DNA of 64,000 nt from Candidatus Omnitrophota bacterium (GTDB taxonomy: Bacteria > Omnitrophota > Gorgyraeia > JAFGHF01), in assembly GCA_020341815.1 (NCBI GenBank), contig CP070837.1:1236575-1300574 (forward strand), given 5' to 3'. Positions 1 to 59,524 of this stretch are shown here, piece by piece. Within the stretch, counting starts at the first letter, position 1; each line of letters starts with the position of its first letter. Under the pieces are notes generated by a model, which saw nothing but the letters and a program-made list of their open reading frames with translations, did no database searches and had not been told where the DNA came from. The position numbers and the translations under genes were made by a program.

Positions 1-3000
1 TTAATACGCCCCAGTACGGGCACATTGCTTGGCGGCACAGGGACAAGATGGCAGAATGATTTAAAATCAGATGAACCGGATAAAGTCAAATTCAAAGATA
101 AATTAATAAATAACCTCCGTCCAGAATTAAGGGAATACATACATTATTTTAAGGCTGCAGTGTCTGTTGGAAAAACAGGCAAGACTGTTTTAAGCGTAGC
201 TCATATAGATAAAGAAAGCTTAATGCAGTCAGGAATGTTTATAATGACTAATGAGACGAATCGAGAGGTGGCTGAGGAGTTTATAAAGGCAGTTATAGAA
301 GAAGAGCTTGGTGAGCGTGATGCTGAAACGGCAATAGCGAAAACTATGATGGTGGTGCAGCGGATAACGCCACGCCGCGTGCCAACCGAAGAAATGGCGA
401 GGAAATATTTTGAAAGAGAGCCCGATAAAATCCCCAGAAAAAAGAACGGAAAAATTATACATAGACAGGTTAAGAAAATCTATAAATATTGCAGAGAGCA
501 CGCGGGCGAGATAGCTATTGATATGAAGACATTGCTGCCAAAAAATAAATTTGGCAGTTTGTTAACGAAATTAGCCGTATTTTTTAAAGCTTTTTTACCT
601 GCTGGATTGCGAAGAAGACTATTTTGTAACAGCGTCGTATTTGGTCCTGAGAATCATTGGGATTTCATAAAGTATTTTGTGGCAAAAGCCTTCTTCCTTA
701 AGGTGTTAAAGAATGTAATGAGGGATGGCCAGATTCACGACCATTTCAAGCGCCTTGGAAACCAGGATGAGTTAGGCGGCGCCTTGGGAGAAGGAAGGCC
801 TGGGGAATTATCCTGGAAGTGGCTGTTGCATTCAGCCCAATCAAAAGGAGGATTATATGAGTTGATAGATGATACTGAGAAGATGCCTCTTGCAAAATGG
901 GAAGATTATTGGAAGAGCTCTGATTTTAGAAAGCGAATCTTGGGAATTGCCGGTGCAGTAATTGAAGGGGGAAGCACACCGGGTTATACCACTGGCGGTG
1001 GGATAGGTATCTTGGTAAGAAATATAGCTGGTGAAATAATCAGAACTATAGGTGTTTCAGAGCGAGGAAATTCAGCGTTGGGCGAGGATAAGATACAGAC
1101 CAGTATTACCAACTCTAATACAATTACTTACAGTGTGTTGGCAATAGCCTTATCCTGTGGTTTGAGGCCCAGTGATATACAGAAAATGATAAAAGAAATG
1201 GATGGCAATAATGGCCAGCTGCCTCTTGAACAAGAGAGCAGATTAAGCGAAAGGGTAAGATTTTTAGAGCAGCAATTTGTCCCTGTGCGTTATCAGGTGA
1301 AGTTAAGGCCGGGTAATCGTCCGGTAGTGGGCCAGGAGCGCGATATACATGGTTTATTAGGCAGAGGAATGGGCGACTTGCTTGTAATTGGCGAAACTAA
1401 AGATACTTATAAGCAGAAGATACAGCAATTAGATGAATTGTTATTAAAAGAAGAAATTACTTCTGGCGAACACCAGATTAAAGAAGAAAGGATAGCAAAA
1501 GATTTCACATTTTTACCCGGCAAACAATTTGACCATCTGAAGAATAGACAAAGGGCGGAAAAAGCGTTGATAAGGGTTTTGAAATTAGAAAATTCAAGCT
1601 CTCCTATTAATCCTGTAGCAGAAATAGACAGCAGAGATAAGACTGTTGATTCATTTAAGATCCCTGAAGAAATGAAGAAAGGCAAAGAAGGCCTGATTGT
1701 CTATGAAGTTGTTAATATTGGAAAGGTCCGAAAAAGAGGAGAGCCTTGTGTTTGGATTTGGTTTAGGGAAGAAGGTATTGCTGCTTGGGGCAGGGGAGTA
1801 GTTTGTACAAAAGAAATTATATATCCAACTTACACTATGTCCTGGGGCAAATATAGGTTAGAAATTTCCCATGACAGATTTAAGAAAAAAATAGTATTTA
1901 AGATTATTTGTCAGTCTTTTAAAGAAGAAGGGCAAGATAAGTCATTTGAGGCGGTAGTTGTGCCACGGAAATCTTTCTTAAACTCTCTTTGTCCTATTAT
2001 GACAAAGGAAACCTCCAGCCCGGCCATTTCAAAGACACAGACCTTCGGCGTGGTGAAGATTGGTTCTTTCTCCTCCCCAACAGAACAAAAGCCGACTAGG
2101 AAGCAGTTAGTGCTCAAGGCCTATAGCGGAGATAAAAGGCCTTCATTTAGTGAGTTATACGAGATTTTAATAACGGCTAACCCTGCCATAGCCTGTACAC
2201 TGTCCAAAGAAGATTTTCTGAAATGGCTAAAGGAAAGTGGATTGTGTAAAAAGATATGGTCTATGGTGATAAAGCAGATATATAGAGAAGTATTTTGCAC
2301 GGTCGATGTTATCTTGGCGTATCCGCCTAAGATTAAAACGGAAGAAGAATTATATAAAGAATTTAAGGAGAAATATGGCTTTGAAGGACTTAAAGAAGAC
2401 AGTTTTTATAATTTTTTGAACTTTGAATTGGCTTCCAAAAATACGACCTGGCAGAAAGAACGCTATAGAGAAACAAGAAGAAGAAAACGGCTAATATTAC
2501 AAGCTATGTTTCTGGAACGTGACATCAACTCAATAGGTGACTTGCGGGAAGTATTGGAAGAAAAAATAAAAGACTATACATTTACAACTTCTGTTGTTAA
2601 AAAGCTGATGCACTGCACGGGATATACTTTTAAAGCTCTGCGGGAGGAGTTTTCTCCTCTGAAGAAACAGTCACAAGAAAGAAACCGGCGCATATTAGAA
2701 GCTGTGTTTCAAGAACATAAAGTCAGTTCAATAGATGAGCTAAGGGAACTATTGGAAAAAAAGTTAAACTGCAGACTCACAGTTAAGACCGTTGAGGGCA
2801 TGCTAAACAGCGCGAGGTATACTTTGGAAGGCCTGCAGAAGAAGTTTTCTTCCGGGCAGGATAAAGCAGGCAGTCCCGTTAAGTCTATAGAAATATCTGA
2901 TATAGGAAGAACTACGGATACAGTGGACGTTTCCGATGCAATGATGGAAGGAAAAGAAGGCATAATTGTCTATAGACTATTTGATTGCGGTAGTATTAGG

Positions 3001-6000
3001 CAAGAGGCTCGCATTTGGATTTTCTTTAGAAAAGGCCACATTATTGTTTCTGCTACGGGAGACTTAAAGCCTATATCAGAAGGCTGTTGGCACTATTGTC
3101 CATGGTGGAATAGTTATGACTTGGAAATCAGATATCTTTCAGGAGATAAAAAAATACGCTTCCAGGTTCCCCGCGATGAGACTTCTTATAGATCTAAATC
3201 TACTGTACAGGAAAAAAAGTTAAGGTTTAAGATAGAAGTTGTATCTCGGGAAGATGGCGTAAACTCTCTTTGGCCTGTTAAGGGAAAAGAAACCTCCAGC
3301 CCGGCCAATTCAAAGACACAGACCTTCGGCGCAGTGGTGAAGGTCGATTCTTTCTCCTCTATTTCATCCCCTATTTCAATAGCTAAGTTGATAGAAAAAT
3401 GGTATATAAGGCAATTAAAGTCTCCATTTAGTATTTTTGGAGGAGGTTTGCATGCGGAAATTGAGATTAGTATGCGAGCTGTTGGTAAACTAGAAAATAT
3501 AGGTAGTGAGCAAGCTATAAAAGCATTGGCTGAAACATTACAGAATATGAATGCCGATAAGAGTGTTCTTAGTAAAGTGGCGGATGCCTTAGGCAACAAT
3601 ATCTCTTTAGTAAAAAATGACGCTGTTATTAAGGAAAAGATAATTCCTGCGCTAATCAAAGCTTTATTTGAAAAACGTGGTTTAGATAATAGAAGGGATA
3701 TTATTACAAAACATGCAGCTTTATCATTAAATAAAGCCATTGATTATATAGAAGATAATCCTATTATAGAAGAAATAGCAACTAATTTGATTAAGGCTTT
3801 TAGACTTAACCGGGAGGAGGAGATTATCAATGCTTTATTAAAAATCAGAAATTTTGCTATTCCTCTTCTAATTAAAGACTTAAAAAGCCCAGATGGCAAT
3901 GTCCGCCGCTCCGCCGCCAAGGCCTTAAGCTACTTTGGTCCTGAGCCCATTCCTCTTCTAATTAAAGACTTAAAAAGCCCAGATAATGATGTACGTCGGA
4001 AGGTCGTTGAAGCCTTAAGCTACTTTGGTCCTGAGGCCAAAGAAGCTGTTCCTGTATTAGTTAGAACTTTAGCTGATAAAGATAAATTTATTTTTGGCGC
4101 GGCAGTTTATGCCTTATATTGCATAACAGGAATTCCTTCAAACGAGATACTGCATAATTATTTGCAGAAAGGTGCTATTTCTAACGAAATTGCAGAACAA
4201 GCATCAATTAATATCGGTCCTGAAGCGGCAAAAACATTAATAGAGGTAGTTGGAATTAGTAAAAAATATGAACCAGAAGTAGTAAAAATATTGAAAGGTA
4301 ATGGACTAATAGCAAGATTTTTACTTATGGCAAGATTGAATGATAGATTATCTGGGATTGCCGATAATTTGTTGGCACGGCAAGGAGATTATTGTAAGCA
4401 AATATTGAATGACGACACAAGGCAATTATTTAATATCTTTTCTGAAGACATGTCTATAACTTCTCAAGAGGAATGGACAAAAAGATTTATGGATATTAAG
4501 GATGATAAACTATTTACTTATTGCATTATCCGCGCCAGGTATTTTATTAATAATTTTTCTGAGAAATCAAAATGGGATAATTTTATAAATTATTTGGATA
4601 GCAATAAAATCCATAATATCCAGGCGGTAAGCGATTTTCATTGTTATACAGGAGAATGTGTGAAATGTTGTGAAAAATGGCCCGTATCAATGACGATGCT
4701 CGATTTATACCGTATACGGTTTATTTTGCAGCAGCGAAAAGTTAGAAAGAGCCTAAAGGACTTATTTATAGAGAATGTTGATGCAACACATTTCTATATC
4801 TCTATTGTTGATAATGGATTTGTTGAAGTTATTCCTCGATTCAATCAACCATGCCCATTTATAGATTATGAGAATATGAATTGCAGTATCTATGATGTCA
4901 GGCCGTTAATATGCCGTATTTTCCCGGGATATACTATAAATAGTATAGCTAAAGAAAAGACACTGTCTTATAAAAAAGAAGGTCTTAAGTGCATTAAAGA
5001 AGGCATAAATATCTCTGAGGCAAGAAGCACATATCTTTATAAACTCCAAATAGCTAAATGGGAAGAAGAAATGTTTACAATTGACGAAATGGATTTGCAT
5101 ATAGAGGATGAAGGTATTATGAATGATACGCCAAGTTCTTATTGGGATATTGCAGTACAGAAAGATACATATAAAAAAATCATAACAAAGTTGATACAAC
5201 TTGATAATTCGGACAATTTAAATGAATTTCTTAAAAAAGCATTAATATATATTCAGCGGTTTAAGTTATTAGAGTATGGAGAGAATCTATTTGATGAGGA
5301 AATTCAATCCTCTCCTGTAGTCGGCGCAGTGGTGAGGATTGGGTATATAAATAATATAAATAGGGACAGCGACCATTTTAACGACTACCCAACGCAAGAA
5401 CCGAAGCAGGCAAGTACGCCGGATGAAAAGGTGGGCAGTTCGCCCGTGAAAAGTAATATAGTTTATCTGGAGACTTCCAATATCTTAGATGGAAATTGGA
5501 GAGAGAGATTAAACTCTTTGAGGATGTTAAGGCCTAAGAGACCACTAACATTGCTTTGTGGAGGCATATCAAGACAAATTACATCAACATTGTGCAATGT
5601 TACTTCCCATATTTGGACGACAGATACCTTGACTATGCTTACATACTCAGTTCCGCTGGCAGTAATTATCTCAATCTTTCTACGGGATTTGGTCGGATCG
5701 CAGCCTATGCTTAACGCTGCATCGCTGGGAATGCTGGTAATGCTAGCTCCTGTATCCAGAGCCATCGTTAGAAAGACAGGTTTACCTTTATTACCTTTTA
5801 AGGATATATTGATAGGTATTAGATGTAATTTTGGATTGAGGAAATATTTAGCCATAAATATTGAAGGCTGCAGCATATCCTTTAGGCAGGTCATCTTGAG
5901 AATAGGTAACAAAAATAGGATATTTAGAGTTATACTTGGCTATTTCTTTATATATAGTTGTTCTGTCAGGGCTGTGATCAAGAAGCTGTCCAGTGATGGG

Positions 6001-9000
6001 TTTAGCGTTTTTCACTTGCTTTACTTTTATCAAGAGCCATTCGTTTTTGAAAGCTTTTTTGATGTTGTCTATTTTCTGGATATTCTTCATCATTCTGCAC
6101 CTCCTGCCATTGGAGCGTTCCATAAGCGCCTTTATCTTTATAACATAGGCCATTTTGAAAGTCAAGGTAAAAAGGTAGGCCAGGAGTCGGGAATCCTGCT
6201 ATCCTCTTCGCCGGTTAAAGAAACCTCCAGCCCCGCCAATTCAAAGACACAGACCTTCGGCGCAGTGGTGAAGGTCGATTCTTTCTCCTCCCCAGCAGAA
6301 CAAAAGCCGATTGGACAGGGTAAGGGCAGCAGCCCCGTCAGGGCAAAGAAAAAGCCTGCTAAAACTGAATTTCAGAGATTGGAAAAAGAGGTCGGGAGAG
6401 TTTTGGAAATAGGCAGTGTGAGCGATTTAGATGAAATGTTCAATACATTAGAGAGCTTTATGGAGGGCAGTAGGAACGATAAAGAAATTGAAGAAGCTCG
6501 CAAGTTGCAGATAAAAGTTTTAAATAGAATTAACTATTTTGAAAATATGCAAAAACAGTGCATCTTTTTACAAAGGAAAGTTAATAGAGCCAAGGAATTA
6601 TATGATGCAGGAAATTTTACTGAGGCGCAAGATTGTCTTAATGAAATATCGCTGCCAGATATCCAAGATGGCTTTGAAACACAAATCGGCCATATCAATC
6701 GTCAGATAGAGGAATTAAGAGGCTTGTTGCAGCAGGAATTATCGGCATTAGATTTGTATAGAGAGGCCGAAAATGTATTGGAAGACAAAGATGCGCCTGT
6801 AGAAATACTGCAGGAAATACATGCGCGGATGTTAAATATAAATCCTGTAGAAGAGAATAAATCATTCCAGAAGTTGAAAAATATGCTAAACTCCCGCATT
6901 ATTTTAGAACGGAAGAGAATTGCAGAAAATAATCTAAAGAGACAGAAGGCGTTGGAAAAAACGTTGGAAGAGATGGACTCTATGCCGACTCATAAGATGG
7001 ATAATCTTATTCAATCCGGGAAGTTTAATCCGGAAGAAGTAAAGACTTTAGAGAGAAGACGCAATAAAATCGAGAGAAAAAGGGAGGAAGAGGAATTAAA
7101 CATAATATTTAATAAAGCTATAAAACTTGTGCAGTCTGGCAAAGCAAAGAAGGCTTTGCAAATGATTGATAGAGAAATTAAAATTTGTAATGCCACTTCT
7201 GAAAATACTTTAAGAGACCATAGAAGAAAAATAAGATTATTAATTCAGATATTAAAGGAAGAGCTTAAAAGGATATTTCTAAAATTTGGTTTTGTTGAAG
7301 AAGGGGATATAGCAGTGGCGAGAGATGTATTTAAGAATGTTGATATTCTATCGAATAGAGAAAGAATAAGAATGGGTATAAAAACATTGGAATTACTTGC
7401 ATTTGGTCCGGAACAGAGCTTATTAGAAATAGATCAGGGTTTATCTAGGGATTCTTTGTCTCTTGAATCTCTTTCTTTGTTTGCTATTGTTTGTGGAGCA
7501 AATGTTACATGTTGTGTTTCAAATGAATATAATAAAGAAGTCTTACAATTGAATATAAATAATCGTCTCAAGGAGATTGGTCATTTAATGATTAACGGGT
7601 TAAAATTAGGCAGAGTTTCTTGGGTAATAGGGTCTATTCATCGGGAAGATATAGTCAGACAATTGCAGAAAAGAGGCCCATTTACCCGTATTATTCATTC
7701 GCAAGCTATAAACCCATCTAAAAATAATGCGGAATATATTAAAAAAACTTACAATTCATTAGTCGGCCTATTAGAACCAAAATCAAAATCAGTCCTTTGT
7801 GTAAGCTGGAAAGAAAGAGATGGCTGTGGCATGTGTAGGTTAATAACTGAGTTGGTAACAGGCTCTTGCAATGCATGTGATTGCGATAGAGGGATGCTTG
7901 AAGAAGAGCTGAAAAATGTATTTGAAACAAATGGTTTATCAGTTAAGAAAAAGGCTATTGTAAAGGAGCCTTTAATTCCCGCAGAAGGAACTAATAGATA
8001 TATCTATATATTAGAAGGCAACCAGTCCTCTCCTGTAGTCGGCGCAGTGGTGCAAATTAATTCTTTCTCCTCAAATGCCCACTCCAGCCCTGCTGAGGCA
8101 AGGGAATTGGAGCGGGGAATGAAGGATGCTTTTGCTGCAAATCCAGATGAATGGCTTGAAGATTGTAGCGCGGAAACCAAATTATTCAGGCCGGGTGATG
8201 GCGTAAGGCCCCTGCAAAGGTATGCTCCGTATTTTATAGAAATCGTGGCCAGGGCTATTGTTTATGGGCTTGGCTGGCTGCCGAAGGAAAATATCCAAAG
8301 CGGCCTTCCCGCTGCGGAGTTAAATAAGGCTATCACCTGGCATCTGGTGCAGGGGTTAGAGAATTTAGGATTACAGAAAGGGGTTTCTTTTGAGGTATGG
8401 ATTAGGGAGACTCAAAGGAAGATGATTTCCGGCACTAATAAGGTAGGAGACATAATCGGCGATGAATCTGCAAAGAGATTTTTAATTTATTATGACCCTG
8501 TGGAGAACTCCGCTGGTGTCTCAGGCAAGAATGCGCAGGAGGTAATGACGGTTCTGGTATGCATTGATGGAGACAAAGAGCGCTTGTCTGCTATTCCTGA
8601 TGGCCTCTATATAGACCAGTTCATTTTGGGGGATGGGTTTAGAAAGGTGGACTTGGATTTTGGCAATATCGTGGGCACTTTAGAAAGCGCAGCCGGCGCA
8701 AGGCTAGGACAGATGAAAATAGTTATGTTAGGCCGAGAGGCAAACAGAGATATTATAGAGGAGTTGGTAAAATCAAAGAGAATACCTGTAAGAACTAAGA
8801 ATTTAGACCAAATGCAGGAGGCTTGGGAGAAAAGCGAAAGCGGAATCTGGCACAACGGGAATCTGATATTCTTCAAACAGGGCATTGCCGCAGCCGGCCC
8901 TTGGCTTGCTTCGGGGAAGGCCGATGTTGTATTGGGCCGCGCTCAACAAGAAGCCTTAATAGTGGCCCTGATGGCGCTATGCGCAGGCAAGGGGTGTCAG

Positions 9001-12000
9001 TTTGGATTAGAGCTATGTAATAAAGATAGAGAAAGAGGAAACTTCTCTGATGAGGACCTGGCGATTATGGATCAGGCTGATATCGGCCCTCCCGGGGCAA
9101 AAGGGCATCGGTTTAAATGGGATCAGCCGATTACAAATGAGACCATTGGAAAACCCAGGGATATTTCTGTTACTTGCGGCTATATTAAAGACAGCTCAAT
9201 AATTGGCTTGAAAGGCGTGCACGCAGAAGGCGATTTAGCTTTTGGAGATGTCATAACCTTAGGGTTGGGCGGAAGAAAGTGGGCCGGCAGATTAAAATAT
9301 AGGATAAAAGAGACAACATCTCCAGAAAAAGAAACTTCGGAAAACTGGGCAAGGCATTTTTATAATAGCGCAAAGCCAGATTATGTCTTTGGCCAGCATG
9401 AGCAGGCAGAGCAGCATGTTAACCATGCACTGCAGTTAGAATGCGATAATCCAGCATATTTAGCGGCAAAATTTTATCTTGAGGGAATAAGATTATTGCT
9501 GGAGTCACCTTCCCCGGAGGTTCTTGAGAAGGCCTGGAATAAGTTCTGGCAGGCGTTTAAGATATCTGCCGGCCATTTGAGCGAGGTCTTTGATGCTGGA
9601 AAAATACTGAAGAAGATGGTTTTTTATATGACAAACGTGAGCCACAGCACAAGGCTATATTGCAAGACATCGGCAGAGCTCTTTATGGGTATTGAGCTTG
9701 CCTACCTGAGGCAGATTCGCTATTTGCGCGAGAAAGAAACAGCCGTATTAAGATTTGTCTATAGCAAATATTCTCCCGAGCCTGGCTCCCGCGATGATTA
9801 TGGAAAGAGGTTAATATTGGCCCATTTAAAATACTACGGCTTAATAGAGCGGCTTGCCGCAGGCGATAGCAGCCTTGACCAAACTGTGGTGAACGGCGAG
9901 CTAATTCCAATATTTAAAGAGATGCAAGCAGCATTTGCCGGATTGAAGTACAATTGGGATGCCTGGGAGCTTCTATTGCTTGCTCTTAGCTGTTACGGGG
10001 ACACTCCTGTAACTGACTGGGGCGGCCTGGCTATGGGTAATGGTATCTGGCTGGCGGCCCAGGAGGCCCTGAAGGTAGGTTTTAAGCAAAAGGCGATAGA
10101 AGAGTTGGAGAAACTGCTGTTTTTTAATAGATTTAAAGCCATATTTATAGGTAATGCATTGCAGATAACATTGAGACAGCTTGAGGAAGGCAAAACACTA
10201 ACCGCCGATAAGCAGATGGGGATTAGAGAAGCAGAAGAAGCCGCTAGGATGTATTATACAGGGGGCGCAAATTGGCATTTGCTTAAGAAGGCTTTCTTTA
10301 GCTATATCGGCTTAATAATGAAATATGAGGGAAAAAGCGCAAAAGAGATAGCCCAGGTAAAGGAAAGCATTGAGAAGTGGCTCCAGGAGAACAATGTTAA
10401 CCATCTAAGATTAGAGAAAAGAGACGGAGAGGTCTTTGTCTATTTTGAAGACTGGAAATGGAGTTTTGAAAGATTGCCCTTATCAGAATTTATAGAAAAT
10501 AATATAAAGAAGGTATCCCAAAGAAAAGTAAAAACTAAAGTCACCTTTTGGCCAAAAGGGATTTACAGTGATAAAATGGAGTATCGTGCTAAAAGAGTTT
10601 TTACGGTAATTTGTAACGTTACAGGAATTGGCTTAATTTTTGTGAACTTTGGATGGAAATGGGCAACTGTATTCGCTATCTTTTTTGCAGCTTTGACCTG
10701 GATTGCGATAAAGGCCTGGCAGAAGATAAAACTCTTTATAAAATCCAAAAAAGGTGAAGATGCATATTATGATGATTCACAGACAACGGATAATCAAGAT
10801 TCTGGCGATGTATCAAGCAGCCCGATAAATATCTTTGAAAAGGATACCGCGCAGAATATTAGAGAAAAGAATAGAATTAAGCAGCAGCCCTCCAGCTCAC
10901 CGGCTGATAATGCTGAAAATAAGCTTGCTACCTTGACTCTTGAGGTAAGAAAAATACAATATTTATGGAATTTGTATGAATATCATTTTACGCTACCGCC
11001 TTCAGGATTAAAGACTAATATGCTCGGGCATATTGAAGACCCTGAATTTTTTCATGTTTATTTTGAAAATTCATTACACATAAAAGATTTTTTCGCTACT
11101 TTAGCCGCAACAGCAGATGAATCCACCGAAGAGATATTAGAAATATTAAAGAGAAGAAATATTCTATATTTTGCCGCTTTCGCTATCAATGGCTCAAATA
11201 AAGTTCCTATAGGATTCGGTTTATATTATATAGATAAGAATCATCTAGGGCATCATGTAGCAAAATGGATATTCCTCACACTTTCCGGAAACGATGTTTC
11301 AGGATTTATGAAAAATTATTTGCATGTTTTAAAGAAAAATATCGGAATGAAGAGCGAATATTTAGTTTGTAAACTTCCGAAAAGCTTTAAGTGCAGCACC
11401 CTTTCTTTAAATGAAGAGTCTGCAAAGTCGGATCATGTAAATCCATTGAATAGTGGATTTCCTTCTTTAAGCAATCTTCTCAATCCCGATACTTCTAAAT
11501 ATGATGTTTATCTTGCTGGAGAATTAACTGAAGAATTAAAAGAAGTATTTCCTGCCCAGCCTTTCTGGAAATTTTTACAATGTCCGGTTAAAGTTATAAA
11601 AGGGCATCTGAAACTTCTTATTTCTTCCAGTCCTGCGCAGGGAAAACCATTAAATATTCTTTTAGTAAAGCCAAGGCCTAAAAATCAGGAGATAAGCTCA
11701 CTTTGGTATCCGCTTGGTTTGATGAGCGTAGCATCTTTCTTGATAGATTCGGGACATAAGATAAAAATCTTAGATTTACAGATTATGTCAAAAAATTTCA
11801 ATTTCACAGAGTATATTGGGCAATTCCCTCCGGATATCATAGGGATAGGTGCTTTAACAGTTGAAATTGATGAGGCAGAGAAGTTATGCAGGGATGCTAA
11901 GCGTCTATTTCCCGATATGTTGGCAGTGTTAGGGGGAAATCATATTTCTGCTTTACCGGAAGAGGTTATGCAGGATACAGTTTTTGATGTGGGGGTTATT

Positions 12001-45000: not shown

Positions 45001-48000
45001 AAAATTAGAAAGCGCATATTTATATATAACCTTCTGCAAATAATTCATGATTGCATTTTGCATCATCATGAACGTTATGCAGGAGAAGGTTATCCTGCAG
45101 GAGGAAAAAGAGGTAAGGGCATTCCTTTGGCAGCACGAATTATAGCAGTTATAGATCACTTTCATACCTTAATTTCATTAAGGCCATTTAAGCAAGCATT
45201 ATCTTTGGAAGAAGCATTAGAAAAATTAAGGGAGGAAAAAGGTAAGAAGCTGGATCCGGATATAGTAGACCGTTTTATAGAAATTATTAAACAGACTGGA
45301 ATAATTGATTGCTGGGATACGGATATGTGGTGGAGGCCTCGCAGAAATACTAAAAGACATTCTTTAACAAAACTTTTCCATCCTGCGCATTTCCTAATGG
45401 ATGGCACTTCTGCTTCTCTTGTTTCCGCCTCGCCGGTATCTCATGATGTATATGCTGCGGCGGTACATATCCTTGGTTTAAACATAGGGGAGTTAACCAA
45501 AGAGACAGCATGCGAATTTCTTCTCAAATTTTTCCAAACAGAAGATGGAAACATTAGAGAAATAAGAGGTATTCTAAGTTTTAGGGATAAGGATAGCAAA
45601 GAAATAGAAATTACAGATCTAATAAAAGCTATAGAACAGACAGGCCTTGATTCTTTCTATCGTCTTCTGGTTAGGGATCTTGCTGCCATTACCGTGATTA
45701 ACAGTAGTGATAAACAAATAGAATTTTACAGGAAGTATGTCGTTCTGCTGAAATATTGGGAGACATCCTCAAAGGAGGATATAAAGAATGAATGTAAACA
45801 ATGTATGGATGAGATATGTAGGTATTATTTATCTAAAGAGGTACAAAGGCGAAGTGAGAAATTTAAATATGAACATTTTTCCTATCGTGTTCCAATTAAG
45901 GATGACTTGATAACACAGCTTTATGAGTCTTACGATGTTTTAGACGATTTAGTGAAGATGTTGTTTTTAGAGTATATTAAACGCACAAAGGAGTTTCCTC
46001 ATTTTGAGACACTTAGTGAAGAAGATATTAAAAACAAAACTTTAGTTATACTATTTTATCCTTGCGAAGAGAGAGAGCTAAATAGAGGAATTTTACCTCC
46101 CAATATTTTTTCTCTCGCTAACAGTATGGTGGCAGAAGATATCAATGTAGTTTTAGCGCCTATGCCGACCAGACTTGCAGAGAAAAACTTTGCCTATAGG
46201 TATTTAAATACAATAAATGCCTATTTAGATCTAAGAGATGTATATAGTGGCCATCCGGTTATGTATGCATGGATGAATATGCTTGTCGGCAGGTATATGC
46301 GAATTTTTAAACAGTTAGGTATGGAAGAAAAAGAAATCCGTATAAAGTTTAATTTTGGTGTATCAATGTTAGATTCTACTTATCCCGATGGCCTGGCTCT
46401 TAATGAGATGTTAAAGCAAAAATTCCCTGAGTCTAAGGTTTATGTAGGTGGGCCTACTGTATCAGCCGAGCCAGAATTGGCGTTTAAAGAAATGTTTGAA
46501 AAAGTTCCCCATAACCCAAATTTTTTGATAAATGGAGAAGCAGAGATTGTATTCCCCTATGTAGTGAAAACGTTAAATAATTGCAATGGGGCAGAAAAAT
46601 TGGAAGATTCTATTATTCAGAAATTATCCGGATGCCATGGTCTTGCGCTTAAGTTTGGCGGAAAGATATCTACTTTTAGATTTAAAGAAAAAAATATGAT
46701 CAATGAAGAAACGATGAATGGATTACCTTTCTTTCCGGAAATTATCGCTGATGATTCCGCAATTTATTATGTTCCTGAAAGGGGATGCCGACACAATTGT
46801 TTCTTTTGTGCGCGGATCACATCGCATAAAGTGCGTATGTCCAGCGCCGATAAAATATTAAGTGATTTAAGGATGATGGATAGAGCTATAGGAGAGTTTA
46901 GACAGACGCTTTTAAAGCGTATAAAAGATAAAGATATGCTGTGGCTATTTGAATTTCCTTTTAATGTTGAAGATAGAGTTTCGATTTTTGAAATTTCTCT
47001 AGTTTTGTTAAATATATTTGAGAATTTAGGAGAAAAAGGAGAAAACATAATCCCGAATAAGTATACCGAACTAATACAAAAATGGGACAGAGACGGAAAT
47101 ATTGAGAGAATAAAGCTATCTTACAAAAGAGCCGGTGATGATATATTTGAAAAATTACAAATTATTATAAATGAAACAGCCGTAAACTTTAGTATGCATG
47201 AGAAGGTGCATATTGATATTGATGATAATAGTTTTTTGCATGATAAGTTTATAGCGATAAAGGTGCTTAAGGATTTAATAGATAAACCTTTACAGCATAT
47301 CCGGGTTAAAAGATTCCAGGCTCATGTAAAAGATTTTAATACACCAACGGGAGAGCCCGATGAAGAAATTGCTGATGTTATAAGAGAAGTTCTTAATGAA
47401 GAGGATGAAGGAGTAATTTTGGGTCTAGAAAGTGGAAGCAACAGGGCTTTAGCCGATTGGTGCAAAGATTTTGATTGGGAATACGCCCGGCAGCGTATTT
47501 CCTGGCTCGATAAGAAAGTCAAGGTTTTTATAAATCTGATTATTTCAAGACTTGAAAGCAATCCTCAGGAAATTATTGAATCTCTAGGCAACATTGCATT
47601 ATTACTTTTAGATACAGAAAATGTAAAGATAACATATGTATCTTTTCTTATGCCTCTTCGTGGCTCATCAGCAGGTAAAAGATTTAACGAAAATAAGCAT
47701 AAAGGAATTAAACCTTTTAGATTTATGGATCGTTATTTAGAGAAACAAATATATTTCTATGAGTTTCCCGATGATGAGGTAGTGAGAAATGTTCTTCCAA
47801 GCAATTATGAAGATTTAGCTAATTGCATGTATTATATAAAAAGCAAGAAAGAAATCATAGCGACCTTTAAGAAAGTTATGACACTTTTAATGGAGGAAGC
47901 TAAGTTAACTCATCACAAGGATCTACGAAAGATAGAGAAGATATATTTTAAGAAGATACAGAGGCTTGAGCAATATTTAGCTAGCAGCCCTGTAGAGATT

Positions 48001-51000
48001 ATAGAGGAATGTCTTGTTAGTTCTGAAAACAGTTCGCCGGTGGATTCAAATAAAGAAAGTAAATTAGGCCTCGAAGTGCCTATTTTTGTGTATGGTATCT
48101 TGGATGGTGCTTTATCTATTGGAAACGTAGAACGATATTGTGATAAGTTGAAAATATTGTTAAAAGAAGATGAACGTATTGTTGAGGTGAAATTTGGCTA
48201 TGATGTGAATGACTACAAGTTTTCAAATTTTATAAAATTTTTCAAGGAGGCACAATCTCTTTCTCCGGAAGGCGCAATAATTTCTATTATGGGTAGGTGG
48301 TATGAACATTGCGTAAAAACTGCCTGTCAAAATGCAGCGGAATTGGCAGAGGATTCAAATTTCCCTATATTTATCATTCTTATTGAAACATATATAGAGA
48401 CTATGTTATCTCGATATTCATTGGCACAAAATAGAATAAAAAAGGGTTTAATTGAGATTGATAAAACTAAAGGAATAAATTTTATTGTTTTTGTTAATGA
48501 CGAAGTAAAAGAATGCAATCCACATATATATAAAGATAAAAACCCCATAATTATAGATATTTATTCAAACGAAAAACAATTTTCTTTGCATGATTTCCTT
48601 ATGAGAATTAAGGCATGGCGCGAGAAAGATCTTTATTGGCTAAGGCAAGAAAAAAAGCCTGAGTTTTTATCCGATGAGACGACCAAAGAATCTATTGAAA
48701 GTGCTGAATTTAATGCATTAGTTAAAGACCCTTTTATTTCCAAAACAAAATCAAACTTTAAAGGTAACTTATCTGTTTTTAAGCAGATGTGCGCGAAGGC
48801 TTTAGTAGAAAGGATAAAAATAGTTTTAAGGGGTGTGCCTTTAGAAAAACTGCCTAATTTTACTCTGGATGATTTATACGAGGAATTAAAAGAAATATAT
48901 AACTCAAATACAGATAAAGCAAATAATCGAAAGAAAAAAAATTCTTTCATTATACGCATAGAGAACATGCTGAAATTAGCCGATCCACCCGATACTTCCT
49001 GGATAAAAATAAAAAAAGAAATTATGCTAGAAAAAGCAAGACAATTATATCCTCCTGTTCGACAAAACAGGGAAATTATCAAACAATTAAATGACTTATT
49101 GCCTTATATAAAATATAAGAATGAAGGAGCAACTTTTAGGAAGATACTAAAAATAAGAGTAAAGGAATTGTTAAAAAATAACCCCTATATGCTCGAAAAT
49201 AAAATAAGAGCTCAAATAACAGAAGATTTATCTCTTCCGGAAAGGATTAGCCAGCAGAGATTTTATGAATGGTTAATACCGTTGGGCGGTCTTAAGCAAT
49301 TGCGCGCTGAGGCATTATATGAAATATTGGAAGAAATAACTGCAAAAAGACAAGAACAAGAAGCCTTTAGTCTGGATAGATTTTTTTATATATTTGCTGG
49401 ATTGGGATTGTTTGGCGAATATCATATAACTAAAAAAAATTTTCTTAAAAAGATAAATAATTTATTAATCAGATTAAATACATCTTTTGAAGAAACAGTA
49501 GGAAAAAATAATGTTTCCAACTCACCGATTGGAAAAGAGGTAGGGCCCGGGATTTCTTCACCGGTCAATAGAGCTGAAATTAAAAAGTTCCGGATAAGAA
49601 AAAGGCAGAGAAGAGCATTCCTGCATAACTTAGTTAAGAAGTTTCCTTGTCTTAAAGTTATATATTTGCTTGAAGATGAGAGGAAAGCCTTAGAGGTAAC
49701 AATAGATAGTTTCTTGAAGAAAATAGATATCTATCTATCAAAGCTCGAAAGCAATTTTAATAATTATAAAGTTGGGAAGGGAGAAGACAAGGAAAACAGT
49801 AAAGAATTAGTTAGGAATAACATTAAATCAATACTTGATAGTATAGACGATCATTTTGCCGATTGCCGGATTATAGAAGGTGTAGTTTTTACAACATTAG
49901 GCCATTTTTTAGCAAATAGTTTAATTGCTTTATCCGGAGCTTTGCATCTTAATGAAGAAGAAAAACAATTTTATCAGGATTTTACACAGATAATCTCACA
50001 ATTAAAATTATTAAAATCTGCTTCAGTAATTCTTGTAAAAGAATTTGGAACTATAAGACATATTGAATTAGATGCTACTGTTTCAGTTGATTCCTGCGGG
50101 AAAAGGATAGAAATACCGGGTGCCTATTCCAGCTTCACCACATATATCAGGCAACTTCCTTCTAAGTTTCTTCTGCGTAATATTTCTCCTAATCTTACTG
50201 TTAGAGCACTGGGGCAGTTGGGAAATATCTATTTAAATCCGCTGGAAAAGGATAAATTAACTCAATTTGCAGAAGATATGCGAGCTATTATAATTTGTAT
50301 TTATGAAAACTTAGCTTTAATCCATGCTCCCCCCGTGAAGAAGTCTAATGCCGAAACCTTCCCTATAATTTTCTGCAACCCAAGAAAATCCCCATCTTAC
50401 AATAAGAACCTTTCACTAAAATCAGCCAAGCAAGACCTGCCGTTGCTAAAAGCCGCCTTCTATCTACTTTCTCACAGAGATAAGTCTTATTTGAATTTTG
50501 GTTTGAAGACCATACTTGAGGCTCTGGAAGCTTACCGCTCAGAATCAACACAAGAAGACAGAATGCGCAGGCTGGTTAAGGTGCTTAAGGCCCGCACGGG
50601 TGGCAATATTCAAGCCGCCGCCTCGCCGGTTAATTTTGACTGCCAAAGTAGCAAAAATAGAACCGTCCCCTTTTCCTTGCAAGGGACTTGTGGTGAGCGA
50701 GCGAAAGTGAGTCGAACCACCGCCTCGCCGGTTTCTCCATTGACATTTAGTTCTAAAAAACAACTATTAACTACATACATGATGCTTTTATCTAGGCAAA
50801 TGGCTTTTAATCATTCCAAATCAGAATTATCACAACTAAAAGAGATTTGGAAAAAGTTCTTTAATAACTTAATAGTCAATATAAATAAACAAATTTTCAA
50901 TAAAGCATTTATACCTACTAAGCAATTTCTTGATAAATGCATCAAAATAGAATCCATCGATAGTTTAATAACTATGTTCTGTAATCGCCAATTAGTGCCT

Positions 51001-54000
51001 TTTCATGGTAAATACGCTTCCCATTATAGCTATGTAGATAATATTTTAGAGAAAATAAAAACAGCAAATAATTTTTCCGATACCTGTAAGATTATGTTTA
51101 TGTTTTCAGATAACCCAGAACATATCAGTTGCGTCTATATCGATTTTATCGAAATTAATTATTACTTTATGGAAATATTGACTGATGATGAATGGGCTGC
51201 GATTTGCACCCATGAATTAGCACATAAAAAGAAAAATCATTTTGAACAATTGTTAAAACTTAAATGTACACATAAAGGCGCTCTTACTAGAAATAGTGAA
51301 ACATGGAAGAATTTTATAAGAAAGATACAGATTGAAGCCGATAAATTTGGTTTGGAGTATGCAATAAAAGCAGGATATAGGCCTGAAGGAGCAGTTACTC
51401 TGTTAAAGAGAGACCTCGAATATTATCTAAGAAAAGAGGAATATCCCCAGTGGTTAATGAAAGATAGCATAGAGATAGAGTCTATACGTGTATTAAAAGA
51501 TAGAATCGAAGCTCTAAAGAAGCACCCTTCGTTATCTCATCTTGCCGCCTCGCCCGCCACAAAGCTTGGCGAGACTTCGTTGCTTCGCTCCAGCTTGCCG
51601 GTGGATTTAGTTAGCCGGTTCCCTTTGATGTTAATGAGACTGGAAGGATATGACTTCTTTTTGTTCATCAAAGGTAATTTTGAAGCGCGGAAAGATATCC
51701 ATCCTGCCCAAAAGGAGAGGTACTTCTTCTATAAGTGCCCAGGCAATGCGTATTTTAAGCCTGTATTTGCCAATAGTCAGATAAGCGGTTTTGAGGATGT
51801 AAGCAACCCCTCCTCCGGAAACACCTCTAATTTCATAAATTTTGTCAGAAGGAGTTTGCTTAAACCCCAGAGCCCTGCCCAGATTAAGGGGCAGCATAGT
51901 GATGTCTGCTCCAGAGTCAATATACATAGGAGTTTCTATTTTCTTTTGATTAACTTCAAGAATTACTGTGGCAATTGGGCGGAGGATTTTGCCCCAGTGC
52001 AAGGATGGCTGGCGTTCGTATTTAAAACGGATCATCTTTCGGTTATTAGAACGAGTAATCGTTGGTCAGGGACCTTGGCTACAAAGGGAATCTTATGGGG
52101 GTATTTTCTTCTTGCCGCCTTAAGCATTTCTTCAATATTGGTCCCCGTAGCCACAGGATTGCCCTCAATTATAACTACATATTGGTTAATAAGCTTATCT
52201 TTATTTAGCTTAATATATGCTTGTAAATTCTTATCCATTCTCTCTTTCTCCAAGAGCAAATATAACACACCGCCGACATTAAGTCAACAGAGAATTTTTT
52301 CAACTTTGTTAAGACCGGCAGGCAGGCATCGTTCATCGGTTGAAGATAAAATACTATCGACCAACGACCAACGACCATCGACTATCGAATCTGCCGTTTA
52401 CGCTGAGCAAGGCCGAAGTGCCTCGCCGGTGAAGGATGACCGGAACAAGATCGGCTATAGCCTTTATGATCGGGAGCTGCGCAGGTTGTATTTAAACCGC
52501 GGTTGCAGTTATATTAGTCCTAAGGACATTAGAGAGGAAAAGAATTTTTATGAAAAATGGAGAGAAAGCCAAAAAGTACCACGGATTGAAGACAATCAAA
52601 AACTCAGCTTAGTAAAGAGTACCTTGCTTCCAAGAGAATTAGGGGAATGGACTTTAGAGTTTCCCATTGGAACTCTTGACAGTTTTTCTGTAATTATTAG
52701 AGCATTTGGAGGAAATGTTGTAGCTGTTGTGGAAGATGAAAAAAGAAGAAAAACTTTAATAAAATACAATGAGAAATACGATAAGTCGATTGCGAAGTTA
52801 AAAGGAGGAGTTTTATACGATGTCCTTATAGGCCGAATTGATTCAGCGGAAATTGAACAAACTTTAAAAAAGATTATTCAAAAACAAGGTAAGTTCAAAA
52901 ATATAATTAATTTTGGGAGAAATTCAATAAATAGAGCTTTTGCTAATTGCGCAGATTTTAAATCATCTGGAGGATTCTATTGGTTTGATGTGCAATTTAA
53001 TCTGAAAAATTTTGAACTGGATTGCAGTAATAAATGGATAAGATTTATATTGAGATGGATATTCTGGAGGCATGGTTTCGGAGTTAAAGAACTTATTAAT
53101 TTGCCCAGTCCCAACATGCCTGATTTTCTGTATAAAGCCTGTCTTATTAGATTGAAGGATGATAAACCTAGTAAGACTGCAATAATTTCTTCTCCTGCAA
53201 GCAACCGAAAAGAAATTGATCCTTTGATTCAAGATTTAAGAGGTGACAGAAAAAATGATGGTTCTATTGCTCTCGCCTCGCCGGTGAGGATGAAAAATGA
53301 CTCTGGCCCCATTTTTACTACTTCCTCGCCTGTGAAACTAAGAAATCTTATTATAGGGATAATTGAGGCATCAAAAAAAAATAACAACGAAGACATATCG
53401 CATTATCGCAAGCTTATTTTAAAAGAAGCAAAAAGCAGACCTGCTGAGGTTTGCAATTTATTACGTACGGGCTTAGGGAGGCCAGAGATCGATAAAATCT
53501 ATTTAACAATAGCTGAATATTTTCGGCGTGATTATGAAGTCATCGGCTCTTTAGTAAAAACATTCGAAGGGGATAATAAAGATTCAATAGCATTCCTCTC
53601 CGCTCAAAAAATCCTTTTAGAAATAGCAGATTTTTCTATTAAAGGTTCTTTTGGCAGGGTTTTTATCGCAATTAGAAAAAGCTTACTTAAAAAATCATCA
53701 TCTCAGCTGGCTAGAGAATTTGTTTATGCGATGATAGAAAGAAAACATGGCAAATTAGTAAGAAGAATGATACCCATTTTTGGCGGTTCAGCTAAAACCA
53801 GAATTATTTTTGAAGATATCTTTTGGGAAAAATTCGAATTATGCGTTTTTCCTTTAGCATCTGCCTTGGGCGATAAAGTTAAAGATACCAGAAGATGCGT
53901 TAAAAATTTCTTTTTAAAGAAAGGAAAAGAATCAAGAGAATCGTATAAACTAATTAAATCGGAGCTGAATAAGGTTCAAAGGAGGTTTGGAAGATTTCCC

Positions 54001-56190: not shown

Positions 56191-56278
56191 GCATCAAAAC
56201 GTCCTTTACGACTTCCGGGTAGACTTCCGGGGACAGGTCACTTAATTCTGAATCGCAAGGACGGTTCTAATTCTTCCC

Positions 56279-56292
56279 CCGCCTCGCCGGTT
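56279..56292 (+). repeat. Linker-repeat copy located 3' of the giant-gene stop (non-coding context)
   Basis: cgcaaggacggttctaattcttcccccgcctcgccggtt compares with the in-frame copy at 42395-42432 (aaaaaagggaacggttctaattctttatccgcctcgccggtg) and with 43921-43956. Confidence 0.75.
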
Positions 56293-56408
56293 ACAGGAGA
56301 TACAGAAAAACGGTCGCTGTCCCTATTTTCTATAAAGGTATTCTTATTTCAGAAAGTCCCTATAAATAGGGATTAAGTGAAATGAGGTCTTTGGCTTCTT
56401 GCTACCTG

Positions 56409-56484: not shown

Positions 56485-57780
56485 GTGTTGGTGAAGAGGA
56501 CAGGCATATTCAGTATGTTATTAATCAGCTTAATAGTCTCCTTGGCGGGCTGCGGGCGTACGGAAACGAAAAAAGCGGATGTGGTTATCTGGCACTGGAT
56601 GACCGACCGAAAGAAGGCCTTTAACGAACTGGCGAAGAGGTATCAGGCGGAAAGCGGAAGACAGGTTGAGTTTAAGTTGTTCGCTCCTTCCGAAATATAT
56701 AGCCAGAAGGTGCGCGCGGCAACTCAGGCCGGGACATTGCCGGATATATACGGTATTTTGGGTGAAAAAAAGGATTTTGCTATCTTTGTTAAGGCCGGGC
56801 ACGTGCTTAATCTGAATACAGAGATGTCGGACAATATTCATGAGTGGAGAAATAAGTTCTTTTCCAAGGCCCTTATCGTTAATGAATTTGAGCCGAACAA
56901 TGAATTTGGCGCCCCGGCGGGAATTTACGGTGTGCCCATTGATGTCACCAATATCCAGATGCTTTATAATAAGGACCTGTTTAAGAAGGCAGGGCTGGAT
57001 CCCGAAAGCCCGCCGCAGACTTTTAGTGAGTTTATCACCGCCGGAAAGAAGCTGAAAAAAGCAGGCACACAGGGACTGGTTTCCGGATGGGCAGAGACCT
57101 GGATGATTGACTGCCTGGCCTCCAATTTTGCCTTTAATATAATGGGTGAGAAAAAGGTAATGCGCACCTATGCCGGAGAGGTCCCTTACACCGACCCGGA
57201 CTGGATTCGTGTATTTAGCCTTTTTAAGGAAATGGCCGACAGTGGTGTTTTAGCTAGCGGTATCGTTTCAATGAACAACAAGGATGCCGAGCAGAACTTT
57301 GCCAATGGACGTGCTGCCTTTGCCTTTAACGGTTCCTGGTGCGTGAACGTGTACAAGGGAATGAATCCCGATTTAAATTATGCGGCGATGTTTGTGCCGC
57401 GGGTTTCCGATGAATATCCGATGCTTATCTGGGGCGGGGCAGGCTCTTCCTTTATGGTCAATGCCCGTTCCGAAAATAAAGAAAAGGCCGTAGAATTTCT
57501 CAAATGGCTCACCGACGAAAAACAGCAGGCCTATTTAGCCCAGGATACCAATAACTTACCTGCCAATAAATATAGTTTAACTAATATTAGTCCGCTTCTT
57601 TCCCAGTTTGCTCAAACTATGGAGAACACCACTCATCCGAATATCTGGCCCCGGCATGAAAAAAGCGTAGTAATTGAGGCCTTTGATATCGGCATTCAGT
57701 CGATTATTCTGGGCACCAAAACACCTGAAGAAGTTGCCCGGGAGGTGCAGGAGGTCAAAGAAAGAGAAATGGCTAAGTGA
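56485..57780 (+). CDS. ABC transporter extracellular solute-binding lipoprotein (carbohydrate, family 1)
   Basis: Lipoprotein signal MLVKRTGIFSMLLISLIVSLAGC (lipobox LAGC). The length and the WHWMTD...LPDIY...GVPIDV...LYNKDLFKKAG pattern are typical of sugar SBPs. A good RBS is present; the start codon is GTG. Confidence 0.8.
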   Translation: MLVKRTGIFSMLLISLIVSLAGCGRTETKKADVVIWHWMTDRKKAFNELAKRYQAESGRQVEFKLFAPSEIYSQKVRAATQAGTLPDIYGILGEKKDFAIFVKAGHVLNLNTEMSDNIHEWRNKFFSKALIVNEFEPNNEFGAPAGIYGVPIDVTNIQMLYNKDLFKKAGLDPESPPQTFSEFITAGKKLKKAGTQGLVSGWAETWMIDCLASNFAFNIMGEKKVMRTYAGEVPYTDPDWIRVFSLFKEMADSGVLASGIVSMNNKDAEQNFANGRAAFAFNGSWCVNVYKGMNPDLNYAAMFVPRVSDEYPMLIWGGAGSSFMVNARSENKEKAVEFLKWLTDEKQQAYLAQDTNNLPANKYSLTNISPLLSQFAQTMENTTHPNIWPRHEKSVVIEAFDIGIQSIILGTKTPEEVAREVQEVKEREMAK

Positions 57781-58658: not shown

Positions 58659-58665
58659 GACAAAT

Positions 58666-59523: not shown

Positions 59524-59524
59524 G

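Follow-up and report, generated by a model that had tools for sequence, protein, structure and literature searches.

An [S/A]-S-P-[V/A/I] peptide motif delimits the modules of a giant gene of Candidatus Omnitrophota

We analysed a stretch of 64,000 nucleotides (nt) of the Candidatus Omnitrophota contig CP070837.1 (positions 1,236,575 to 1,300,574, forward strand), referred to here as the window. Most of it is occupied by one open reading frame (ORF), and a short peptide motif, [S/A]-S-P-[V/A/I], recurs along the product at the joints between its domains. The reading frame is already open at base 1, and the 5' end of the gene therefore lies outside the window. The product exceeds 10,000 amino acids (aa) in one frame and is of the Omnitrophota giant-protein type (Archaeovorin-type).

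Giant ORF: 1-56190, + strand, TAA stop at 56188-56190; at least 18,729 aa; Omnitrophota-type multi-enzyme giant protein.

The pattern [SA]SP[VAI] was found 59 times in the frame of the coding sequence, and 61 times with the open stretch that follows the stop codon, where about 2 copies were expected from composition. SSP was observed 51 times against 2.7 expected (P=3e-46), and SSPV 18 times against 0.13. The other five frames held 0-4 copies, which is chance level, and six downstream genes held none. When the variants GSPV, SSPT and SSPL were counted, the total came to 64 copies, grouped in 42 junctions. Motif spacing was bimodal, with 7-76 aa within junctions and 133-1308 aa between them; the junctions delimit 41 modules of 133-1,308 aa (median 355 aa). 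Residues flanking the four-residue core were barely conserved, and the linkers were very short and mildly polar. Variants clustered along the gene: ASPx occurred only 3' of 34 kb (34144-55555), and copies with AGC at the second Ser lay mostly 5' of 34 kb (2014-34018) and tended to end in Ala. The junctions, all on the + strand, are as follows.

Junction 1: 1597-1608, +, SSPI; similarity to the Omnitrophota proteins P0272-P0275 stops at this site.
Junction 2: 2014-2082, +, SSPA/SSPT doublet inside D3 linker repeat copy 1.
Junction 3: 2869-2880, +, degenerate GSPV; N-terminal edge of the paralogue of module aa 533-672.
Junction 4: 3295-3375, +, SSPA/SSPI doublet; D3 copy 2.
Junction 5: 5308-5448, +, SSPV/SSPV doublet; D4 linker family.
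Junction 6: 6205-6339, +, SSPV/SSPA/SSPA/SSPV quadruplet; D3 copy 3, mosaic built from copies 1 and 2.
Junction 7: 8026-8094, +, SSPV/SSPA doublet; D4 family.
Junction 8: 10816-10905, +, SSPI/SSPA doublet.
Junction 9: 11626-11637, +, SSPA; B12-binding domain starts 22 aa later.
Junction 10: 12994-13005, +, SSPV; end of B12-binding radical-SAM module, start of paralogous module A.
Junction 11: 14302-14313, +, SSPI; end of paralogous module A.
Junction 12: 15154-15327, +, SSPV/SSPI/SSPA triplet.
Junction 13: 16243-16302, +, SSPL/SSPA doublet.
Junction 14: 16975-16986, +, SSPA; start of paralogous module A'.
Junction 15: 18286-18297, +, SSPT; end of paralogous module A'.
Junction 16: 19561-19677, +, SSPI/SSPV doublet.
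Junction 17: 21349-21360, +, SSPV.
Junction 18: 22168-22179, +, SSPV; start of ROK-containing module.
Junction 19: 24223-24234, +, SSPA; end of ROK-containing module.
Junction 20: 25456-25467, +, SSPI.
Junction 21: 26338-26349, +, SSPV; TPR array 17 aa further on.
Junction 22: 27628-27639, +, SSPV; 10 aa past the TPR array.
Junction 23: 28525-28590, +, SSPI/SSPV doublet; start of the SecA-like module and of similarity to the free-standing protein P0001.
Junction 24: 32503-32514, +, SSPI; end of the 1,308-aa SecA-like module.
Junction 25: 32974-32985, +, SSPA.
Junction 26: 34018-34155, +, SSPA/ASPA doublet.
Junction 27: 36097-36336, +, SSPA ... ASPI; the ASPI opens the paralogue of the last module.
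Junction 28: 36916-36927, +, SSPI; linker homologous to the post-stop relic.
Junction 29: 37909-37920, +, SSPA; directly 5' of the internal duplicate of about 800 nt at 37926-38720.
Junction 30: 40795-40806, +, ASPA; left breakpoint of the module common with CP070797.1 (SSSA there).
Junction 31: 42376-42432, +, SSPI/ASPV doublet; D11 copy 1; right breakpoint of the module common with CP070797.1 (CSPI there).
Junction 32: 43489-43500, +, ASPV.
Junction 33: 43888-43956, +, SSPV/ASPV doublet; D11 copy 2; start of HD-GYP-type module.
Junction 34: 45427-45438, +, ASPV (GCCTCGCCGGTA); end of HD module.
Junction 35: 47983-48042, +, SSPV/SSPV doublet.
Junction 36: 49555-49566, +, SSPV, with NSPI before it; end of the internal duplicate at 48702-49498.
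Junction 37: 50620-50733, +, ASPV/ASPV doublet; start of M48 module.
Junction 38: 51547-51558, +, ASPA; 5 aa past the M48 domain match.
Junction 39: 52420-52431, +, ASPV.
Junction 40: 53188-53334, +, SSPA/ASPV/SSPV triplet.
Junction 41: 54097-54108, +, degenerate GSPV.
Junction 42: 55555-55593, +, ASPV/SSPA doublet; start of the last module.

Pfam domains recognised in the giant protein were HEAT, CxxCxxCC, B12-binding with radical SAM, ROK and a long TPR array, together with SecA_DEAD, SecA_PP_bind, P-loop_SecA, HTH, HD/HD-GYP, M48 peptidase and a second radical-SAM trace; an M50-like membrane protease module was recognised by homology. None of the 64 motifs lay inside a Pfam, external-homology or internal-paralogy block, where 15.8 were expected (P=1e-8). 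This agrees with an earlier reading of the DNA made without database searches (the sequence-only reading), which had placed the motif about 60 times at domain boundaries. Sixteen of 22 homology breakpoints, counted from internal paralogy and from similarity to other genomes, fell within 20 aa of a motif (expected 12%; P=8e-11). Motifs at aa 3876 and 4332 bracket the B12-binding radical-SAM domains (3898-4236), those at aa 8780 and 9210 the TPR array (8797-9200), those at aa 14649 and 15143 the HD module, and those at aa 16908 and 17183 the M48 module. In a single-sequence AlphaFold model of aa 8454-9550, all five motifs (5/5) fell in long coil gaps; with a mean predicted local distance difference test score of 40.7 this model is too poor for fold inference, and its coil/helix pattern alone was used. 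Five modules have the following limits.

B12-binding radical-SAM module: 11626-13005, +, 460 aa, a whole enzyme; collinear with free-standing chains of 450-457 aa.
SecA-like module: 28579-32514, +, SecA_DEAD, PP_bind and P-loop_SecA.
M50-like membrane-protease module: 40795-42432, +, both bounding motifs included; 64% identical to P0121 aa 1141-1666.
Paralogous module A: 12994-14313, +, aa 4332-4771.
Paralogous module A': 16975-18297, +, aa 5659-6099; 41-44% identical to A.

Motif-to-motif paralogues were found within the gene. Modules A and A' align from aa 4332-4768 to aa 5659-6096 (41-44% identity), aa 12109-12306 align with aa 18519 to the C-terminus, and aa 533-672 align with aa 957-1099, where the N-terminal motif is degenerate (GSPV). 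Paralogous modules have diverged to 26-44% identity and still carry the motif at both ends. Inside A and A', the DNA segments 13155-13471 and 17160-17485 are 74-80% identical, so that both modules retain recognisable nucleotide similarity. A further internal duplicate of about 800 nt (37926-38720 and 48702-49498; 78-89% nt and 68% aa identity) stands in different module contexts, and each copy is without the motif on one side (SSPA vs ESAE) and merged with the neighbouring domain.

The M50-like module (aa 13598-14143) was also found in another giant gene. It is 64% identical to aa 1141-1666 of P0121, a protein of the complete Omnitrophota genome CP070797.1, with the same codon at 290 of the 351 identical residues. 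The left edge of similarity is the first codon of a motif, ASPA in the window and SSSA in P0121 (TCG CCG vs TCG TCG), and the right edge lies just past the last motif codon (SSPI vs CSPI, which differ at synonymous sites too); beyond these edges the two sequences are unrelated. The modular shuffling proposed by the sequence-only reading is thus borne out by a 64%-identical module exchanged motif to motif and by the motif-bounded internal paralogues. From these comparisons, the motif is judged to delimit modules that are units of duplication within the gene and of exchange between giant genes. In the M50-like module, at about 41020 (aa ~13675), HExxH is intact (GLHELVH); P0121 reads GLHEGVY at about aa 1215, which suggests that metal binding and activity were probably lost in that counterpart.

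Breakpoints between genomes that fall exactly on 12-nt motifs would also be expected if the element were primarily a DNA-level recombination joint, that is, a GC-rich in-frame KCC TCG CCG GTN at which cassettes are exchanged by micro- or homologous recombination, with the peptide as a by-product. Breakpoints would fall in linkers anyway, however, because only such recombinants survive selection. We therefore compared conservation of the motif at the peptide and DNA levels. All six Ser codons, of the TCN and AGY classes, were used within the motif. AGC and TCN codons alternated at both Ser positions, and most copies shared at most 8 nt; AGY and TCN codons are not interconvertible through one synonymous change. 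Similarity of the flanks (18+18 nt) was 10.43/36, compared with 10.04/36 at random in-frame sites, and related flanking DNA was present in only 4 of 1,711 copy pairs. Averaged over all pairs, the 12-mers agreed at 6.88/12 positions, compared with 6.50/12 under synonymous resampling with codons drawn from the giant gene's own usage. About 60 copies have kept four residues while their surroundings diverged to randomness, which demands purifying selection on the peptide.

The claim that the DNA is conserved far beyond the needs of the motif applied to a minority of copies. There were 11 identical 12-mer pairs against 1.2±1.1 under the same resampling, an excess that a recombination joint would explain; across all copies the mean moved only slightly from the resampled value. 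The DNA core GCCTCGCCGGTK was present in 7 exact copies (0.01 expected). The copy at 45427, which had been counted with that core, ends in GTA and not in GTG or GTT, and those placed at 50629, 50721 and 52421 do exist, at 50620, 50722 and 52420. The near-variants were found as described (36325, 51547 and 55555).

Two features of codon use speak against a purely peptide role: the second Ser was TCG in 25 of 59 copies against a gene background of 6%, and the first Ser was never TCG in the same 59 copies. Pro was CCG in 44% of copies (background 21%), and the GC content at third codon positions (GC3) was 0.54-0.58 in the motif and 0.34 in the background. The TCG excess at the second Ser persisted outside recognisable repeat families (18/42). 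GC-biased conversion at recombination hot spots would fit the excess of TCG, CCG and GC3 beyond the repeat families. The same bias towards the rarest Ser codon, and the high GC3, could be read as a translational pause, in which rare GC-rich codons (TCG, CCG, GCC, GTG) at module ends aid co-translational folding of a chain of more than 18,000 codons. A pause would not need a fixed peptide, though, over half of the copies are written in common codons, and founder descent or gene conversion explains the bias equally well; we consider a pause extremely unlikely. CCGG as a restriction or methylation target was discarded: just 23 of the 148 CCGG sites are in motifs, and the sequence looks like a by-product of Pro-Val/Ala codons.

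The codon of the second Ser was linked to the residue at position 4, AGC going with Ala and TCG with Val or Ile (P=0.006). This linkage and the regional clustering of variants indicate that the copies are related by descent. In our reading, a small number of GC-rich founder linkers gave rise to them and multiplied when modules accreted or were duplicated, with synonymous sites decaying under peptide constraint and some conversion still going on. The position-specific codon bias is not fully explained by founder descent together with peptide constraint. Conservation is nevertheless mostly at the peptide level, with recent DNA copies or gene-conversion products making up a minority of linkers.

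The clearest of these DNA copies belong to the long linker form described in the sequence-only reading, which exists as a 74-nt repeat at three sites.

D3 linker DNA repeat copy 1: 2005-2078, +, 78% identical to copy 2.
D3 linker DNA repeat copy 2: 3286-3359, +, 74 nt.
D3 linker DNA repeat copy 3: 6217-6290, +, one synonymous mismatch in 74 nt to copy 2; right flank as in copy 1.

Similarity between the 3286 and 6217 copies breaks off abruptly on both sides. These edges and the mosaic structure of copy 3 are a signature of gene conversion or of a very recent linker duplication, and the DNA-identical subsets of linkers can be understood if linkers still undergo gene conversion. Near-identical 74-nt linkers with abrupt edges and mosaic structure are what a recombination joint would leave behind, and exchange of linker DNA, as had been proposed, holds for some linkers. 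The predicted hairpins stood up in part. GACCTTC-N11-GAAGGTC was found at 3286 and 6217 but had degenerated at 2005, and the AATCCTC...GAGGATT stem was present at about 5309 and absent at about 8027; the encoded peptide GAVV.[VI].SF was kept where the stems vary. Folding z-scores of five linker copies relative to shuffled sequences were +2.2, -0.3, +0.3, -2.7 and -1.7, with one copy (-2.7) folding better. A conserved DNA or RNA hairpin in the long linkers was therefore rejected, as stems are lost in some copies and most are no stabler than shuffled sequence.

A motif copy beyond the stop codon had been taken as evidence of a DNA repeat in non-coding sequence. The copy exists, at 56281; its context is not arbitrary non-coding DNA.

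Post-stop in-frame stretch: 56191-56373, +, 61 sense codons; relic linker ...NRKDGSNSSPASPVTGDTEKR..., DNA core 56281-56292, homologous to the junction 28 linker.
D11 copy 3: 56248-56294, +, post-stop linker repeat.

The copy is in frame with the giant ORF, and past the TAA this frame remains free of stops up to 56374; 61 open codons would arise by chance with a probability of about 0.003 (off-frame stop density 9-10% per codon). The last module is a paralogue of aa 12109-12306, and the linker after that segment, NRNRDSISSPINPGLPQSEKD, can be aligned with the post-stop peptide NRKDGSNSSPASPVTGDTEKR. This alignment argues that the post-stop copy is a relic of a translated linker and not evidence of a free DNA element. 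Its prefix, GGTTCTAATTCTT, is common to the 42.4-kb copy, as had been claimed; that of the 43.9-kb copy, GGTTCTACTTATT, differs from the 42.4-kb prefix by two mismatches. No convincing terminator or promoter was found around the relic. The 3' end of the giant gene looks as if a once longer ORF had been cut short, or may be a readthrough extension, as far as the sequence indicates.

The motif thus occurs in one frame and one orientation only. No recombinase, integrase, transposase or mobile-element gene was present in the window. With varied codons, unrelated flanks, unconserved hairpins and a post-stop copy that is an in-frame relic of a translated linker, the view of the element as a DNA repeat rather than a protein linker was not supported. 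A role primarily as a recombination joint appears very unlikely, even with the identical pairs, the mosaic linker and the shared breakpoints counted in its favour.

Taken together, the window contains most of an Omnitrophota-type giant gene, the product of which is a chain of about 41 protein-sized modules. Many modules are equivalent to free-standing enzymes (B12-radical SAM, ROK kinase, TPR, SecA-like ATPase, HD-GYP, M48/M50 proteases). Each module boundary carries [S/A]-S-P-[V/A/I], often as a pair that encloses a small spacer, with 7-45 aa between the two copies. This anatomy, a chain of about 41 modules with motif joints under peptide selection, descent from founder linkers, gene conversion and module exchange, is in our judgement very probably correct.

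The motif signature extended to at least one other giant gene. P0121 contained nine [SAGC]SP[VIL] sites against 0.4 expected (P=1e-9), spaced 418-862 aa apart and outside Pfam domains; they showed the same TCG/AGC preference, and one had the identical core GCCTCGCCGGTT, a further point in favour of a DNA-level joint. Directly downstream of P0121 are six short ORFs (63-404 aa, without Pfam match; L003 21902-24860), which might be remnants of a giant ORF that was once longer. The P0121 gene is also AT-rich (35% GC vs 40% in its flanks; L003 10001-21801). Four long Omnitrophota proteins (P0272-P0275) matched only the first module of the window, with similarity stopping at the first motif, and relatives read a loose [ST]-P-V-R at the homologous junction. 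Close orthologues of the giant gene were not found: a scan of a genome collection matched only CP070797.1 and JAMWCT010000067.1, and metagenome scans were without match. Every specific relative retrieved was annotated as Candidatus Omnitrophota/Omnitrophica.

The closest relative of the SecA-like module was P0001 (1,423 aa; L001 10001-15371), which is free-standing among ordinary neighbours and without the motif. The module scored higher against P0001 and P0123 than against canonical SecA. PF07517, PF01043 and PF21090 were matched in it, and PF07516 (the SecA scaffold/wing domain, SecA_SW) had no match in the giant protein at E<=0.01. P0001 has an N-terminal hydrophobic segment and a long HTH_8 (Fis-type) repeat array, and its gene adjoins an rve_3 integrase gene.

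A sharp short linear motif would imply a protein that reads it, and a processing or modification site seems to fit the peptide-level selection better than a DNA repeat does. We tentatively favour a reading in which a processing protease specific to the lineage recognises the motif and the giant ORF is a bacterial polyprotein; we hold it to be possible, though short of probable. Cleavage would be expected right after the aliphatic residue, and doublets would release short spacer peptides. The small-small-Pro-aliphatic pattern shows no preference downstream and is similar to what subtilase/elastase-type serine proteases prefer at P4-P1; Ala-Ala-Pro-Val, -Ala and -Phe are classic substrates of these enzymes. 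If the motif is cleaved, a cut after the aliphatic residue (P4-P1 = S-S-P-V) may fit at least as well as the cut SSP-V between Pro and Val that had been suggested. A protease is favoured because the units are whole-protein-sized and functionally unrelated, because doublets around spacers resemble polyprotein processing, and because a single chain intersperses membrane proteases among cytoplasmic-type enzymes and HTH DNA-binding domains. That the ORF is a true polyprotein of about 40 proteins with a dedicated protease, and the 12-nt joint at the same time a seam for duplication, deletion and exchange, is doubtful.

Several observations weigh against the processing protease. S8, S1 and C39 protease domains were not detected in the visible 18.7 thousand aa, the N-terminus lying outside the window, or in the neighbouring genes; the proteases present in the visible part of the giant ORF are the M48 and M50-like membrane metalloprotease modules only. 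Short, mildly polar linkers may limit the access of a protease. At some junctions the motif has been lost without disruption of the ORF (SSPA vs ESAE; ASPA vs SSSA). Motif enrichment was not seen in P0001, P0122, P0123 (4,930 aa) or P0273-P0275, five of these six coming from large multidomain genes, and P0272 was borderline with 3 sites against 0.5 expected. Among about 268 other SecA-type relatives (248,539 aa), there were 8 relaxed-motif sites where 19.4 were expected; these matches of the SecA module are mostly proteins of 700-2,000 aa, with one above 4,000 aa. Enrichment in P0121 and not in other long proteins indicates that the signature belongs to a sub-lineage of giant genes, and since the motif is absent from most other giants, motif-dependent maturation cannot be general to giant proteins.

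The peptide-level selection and the linker location apply equally if the protein stays whole and the motif is a modification sequon (Ser-Pro O-glycosylation or phosphorylation, prolyl isomerisation) or a docking peptide for TPR or HEAT repeats. Peptide-binding repeats of both kinds are present in the giant protein, linkers with Ser and Pro are a typical target of O-glycosylation in modular enzymes, and glycosyltransferases are published as common in Omnitrophota giants. Within the visible part of this giant, however, neither a glycosyltransferase nor a protein kinase domain was detected, many modules are enzymes of cytoplasmic type for which O-glycosylation would be unusual, and neither the strict aliphatic position 4 nor the doublet with spacer is specifically predicted by modification or docking. 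We regard modification or docking as doubtful.

The motif could also be a passive linker signature, an extended or helix-capping Ser-Pro turn inherited from a founder linker with no specific partner. The codon-residue linkage and regional clustering, which show descent, the loose [ST]-P-V-R of relatives and the tolerated motif losses are all consistent with it. Such a turn would not readily account for four residues that are essentially invariant in about 60 copies with randomised flanks. The constraint on the motif exceeds that on the enzyme modules (26-44% paralogue identity), which is unusual for a generic linker, and other Omnitrophota giants form similar chains without the motif. A passive role is accordingly rated as quite unlikely. 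Two further candidates were set aside: a helix N-cap capping box (S-x-x-E), as the residue after the motif is not Glu-dominated, and a signal-peptidase-type A-x-A site, which is unlikely with Pro at or next to the would-be scissile bond.

The remaining features of the window concern the composition and surroundings of the giant gene. The visible 18,729 aa are rich in L, K, I and E, and nine transmembrane-like segments are interleaved with HEAT/TPR, radical SAM and other enzyme domains. GC content was about 35% in the giant gene and 44-48% in the six ordinary downstream genes (1-56190 vs 56485-63933). Among the products of the latter are an ABC sugar-uptake system and a GH2-like protein; the GH2 is a separate gene and not part of the giant ORF, and the 438-aa ORF downstream of it (62617-63933) had no Pfam match. 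Glycoside hydrolase and methyltransferase domains, like glycosyltransferase and C39/S8 peptidase domains, were not detected in the visible giant protein. A tandem 90-nt repeat (82% identity, 3859-4038) encodes two HEAT repeats. No Rfam family was matched anywhere in the window.

Omnitrophota giant proteins have been described by West-Roberts et al. (2023, bioRxiv 10.1101/2023.11.21.568195) and in a complete-genome catalogue (2026, bioRxiv 10.64898/2026.06.07.730766) that lists 916 long proteins. Both papers raise post-translational cleavage and one calls the cleavage points unknown, which, according to the giant-protein literature, has blocked structure-prediction strategies. For giants of 10,000 to >100,000 aa, the central question is whether they are one polypeptide or many, and where they are cut. 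The junction motif is a first concrete candidate for the site of cutting, modification or recombination in such giants. It predicts exact termini, allows in-silico splitting into about 41 foldable units and offers a handle on the enzyme that reads it. Motif-bounded modules are the currency of giant-gene evolution, through duplication within genes and transfer between genomes, which helps to explain why the giants are nearly all unique in sequence yet alike in architecture.

The gene resembles published Omnitrophota giants in its single ORF of tens of kb, in a divergent SecA_DEAD and preprotein-binding region without a detected scaffold/wing domain, in its HEAT/TPR, radical SAM, ROK, HD and peptidase modules and in its scattered transmembrane segments. 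S8 and C39 domains are reported in some giants; in this window, neither of these is visible, nor is a glycosyltransferase or dockerin domain. Giant genes of this class are known from earlier work; neither dedicated paper (10.1101/2023.11.21.568195; 10.64898/2026.06.07.730766) mentions the junction motif. In a non-exhaustive search of the literature, no Omnitrophota polyprotein and no such junction motif was found described elsewhere.

In viral polyproteins, a recurrent protease site stands at each protein boundary (picornavirus 3C, potyvirus NIa, coronavirus Mpro). The giant ORF likewise has a recurrent short consensus at boundaries between functional units, at 42 junctions, and shares with viral polyproteins unrelated protein-sized units in one ORF, a sharp consensus with unconserved flanks and some doubled junctions. 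It differs in that its cleavage is putative, in its cellular host and in a chain about 5-10 times longer than any viral polyprotein.

The interdomain linkers of cellulases and cellulosomes are Ser/Thr/Pro-rich, long, of low complexity and variable. Like them, the linkers of the giant ORF separate modules that fold independently, include Ser and Pro and are points of domain shuffling; unlike them, they carry an exact tetrapeptide in an otherwise unremarkable short linker. Rickettsia palindromic elements are selfish DNA repeats inserted in frame into protein-coding genes. Repeated DNA is translated in frame here too, and the 74-85-nt long form has an imperfect hairpin. In contrast to such elements, DNA conservation is confined to few copies and does not include the flanks, the hairpin is unconserved with non-significant folding, and the window holds no opposite-orientation copies and none in truly non-coding (intergenic) DNA. 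Nor does the motif behave as a site-specific recombination site (attC-like or a recombinase target), as its codons vary and the window encodes no recombinase.

Phase-compatible exon shuffling and the polyketide synthase and nonribosomal peptide synthetase megasynthases, which swap modules at conserved linkers, are the closest parallels to the mode of evolution. As in these systems, units bounded by a conserved in-frame joint are duplicated or exchanged between large genes; there are, however, no introns, no carrier, condensation or ketosynthase logic and no assembly line, and the modules are functionally unrelated. If the gene encoded a polyprotein whose joints also served as seams, it would join a virus-like expression strategy to exon-shuffling-like evolution in a cellular organism. 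If the motif is not cleaved, it would still be a strong and unusual bacterial example of purifying selection on a lineage-specific short linear motif.

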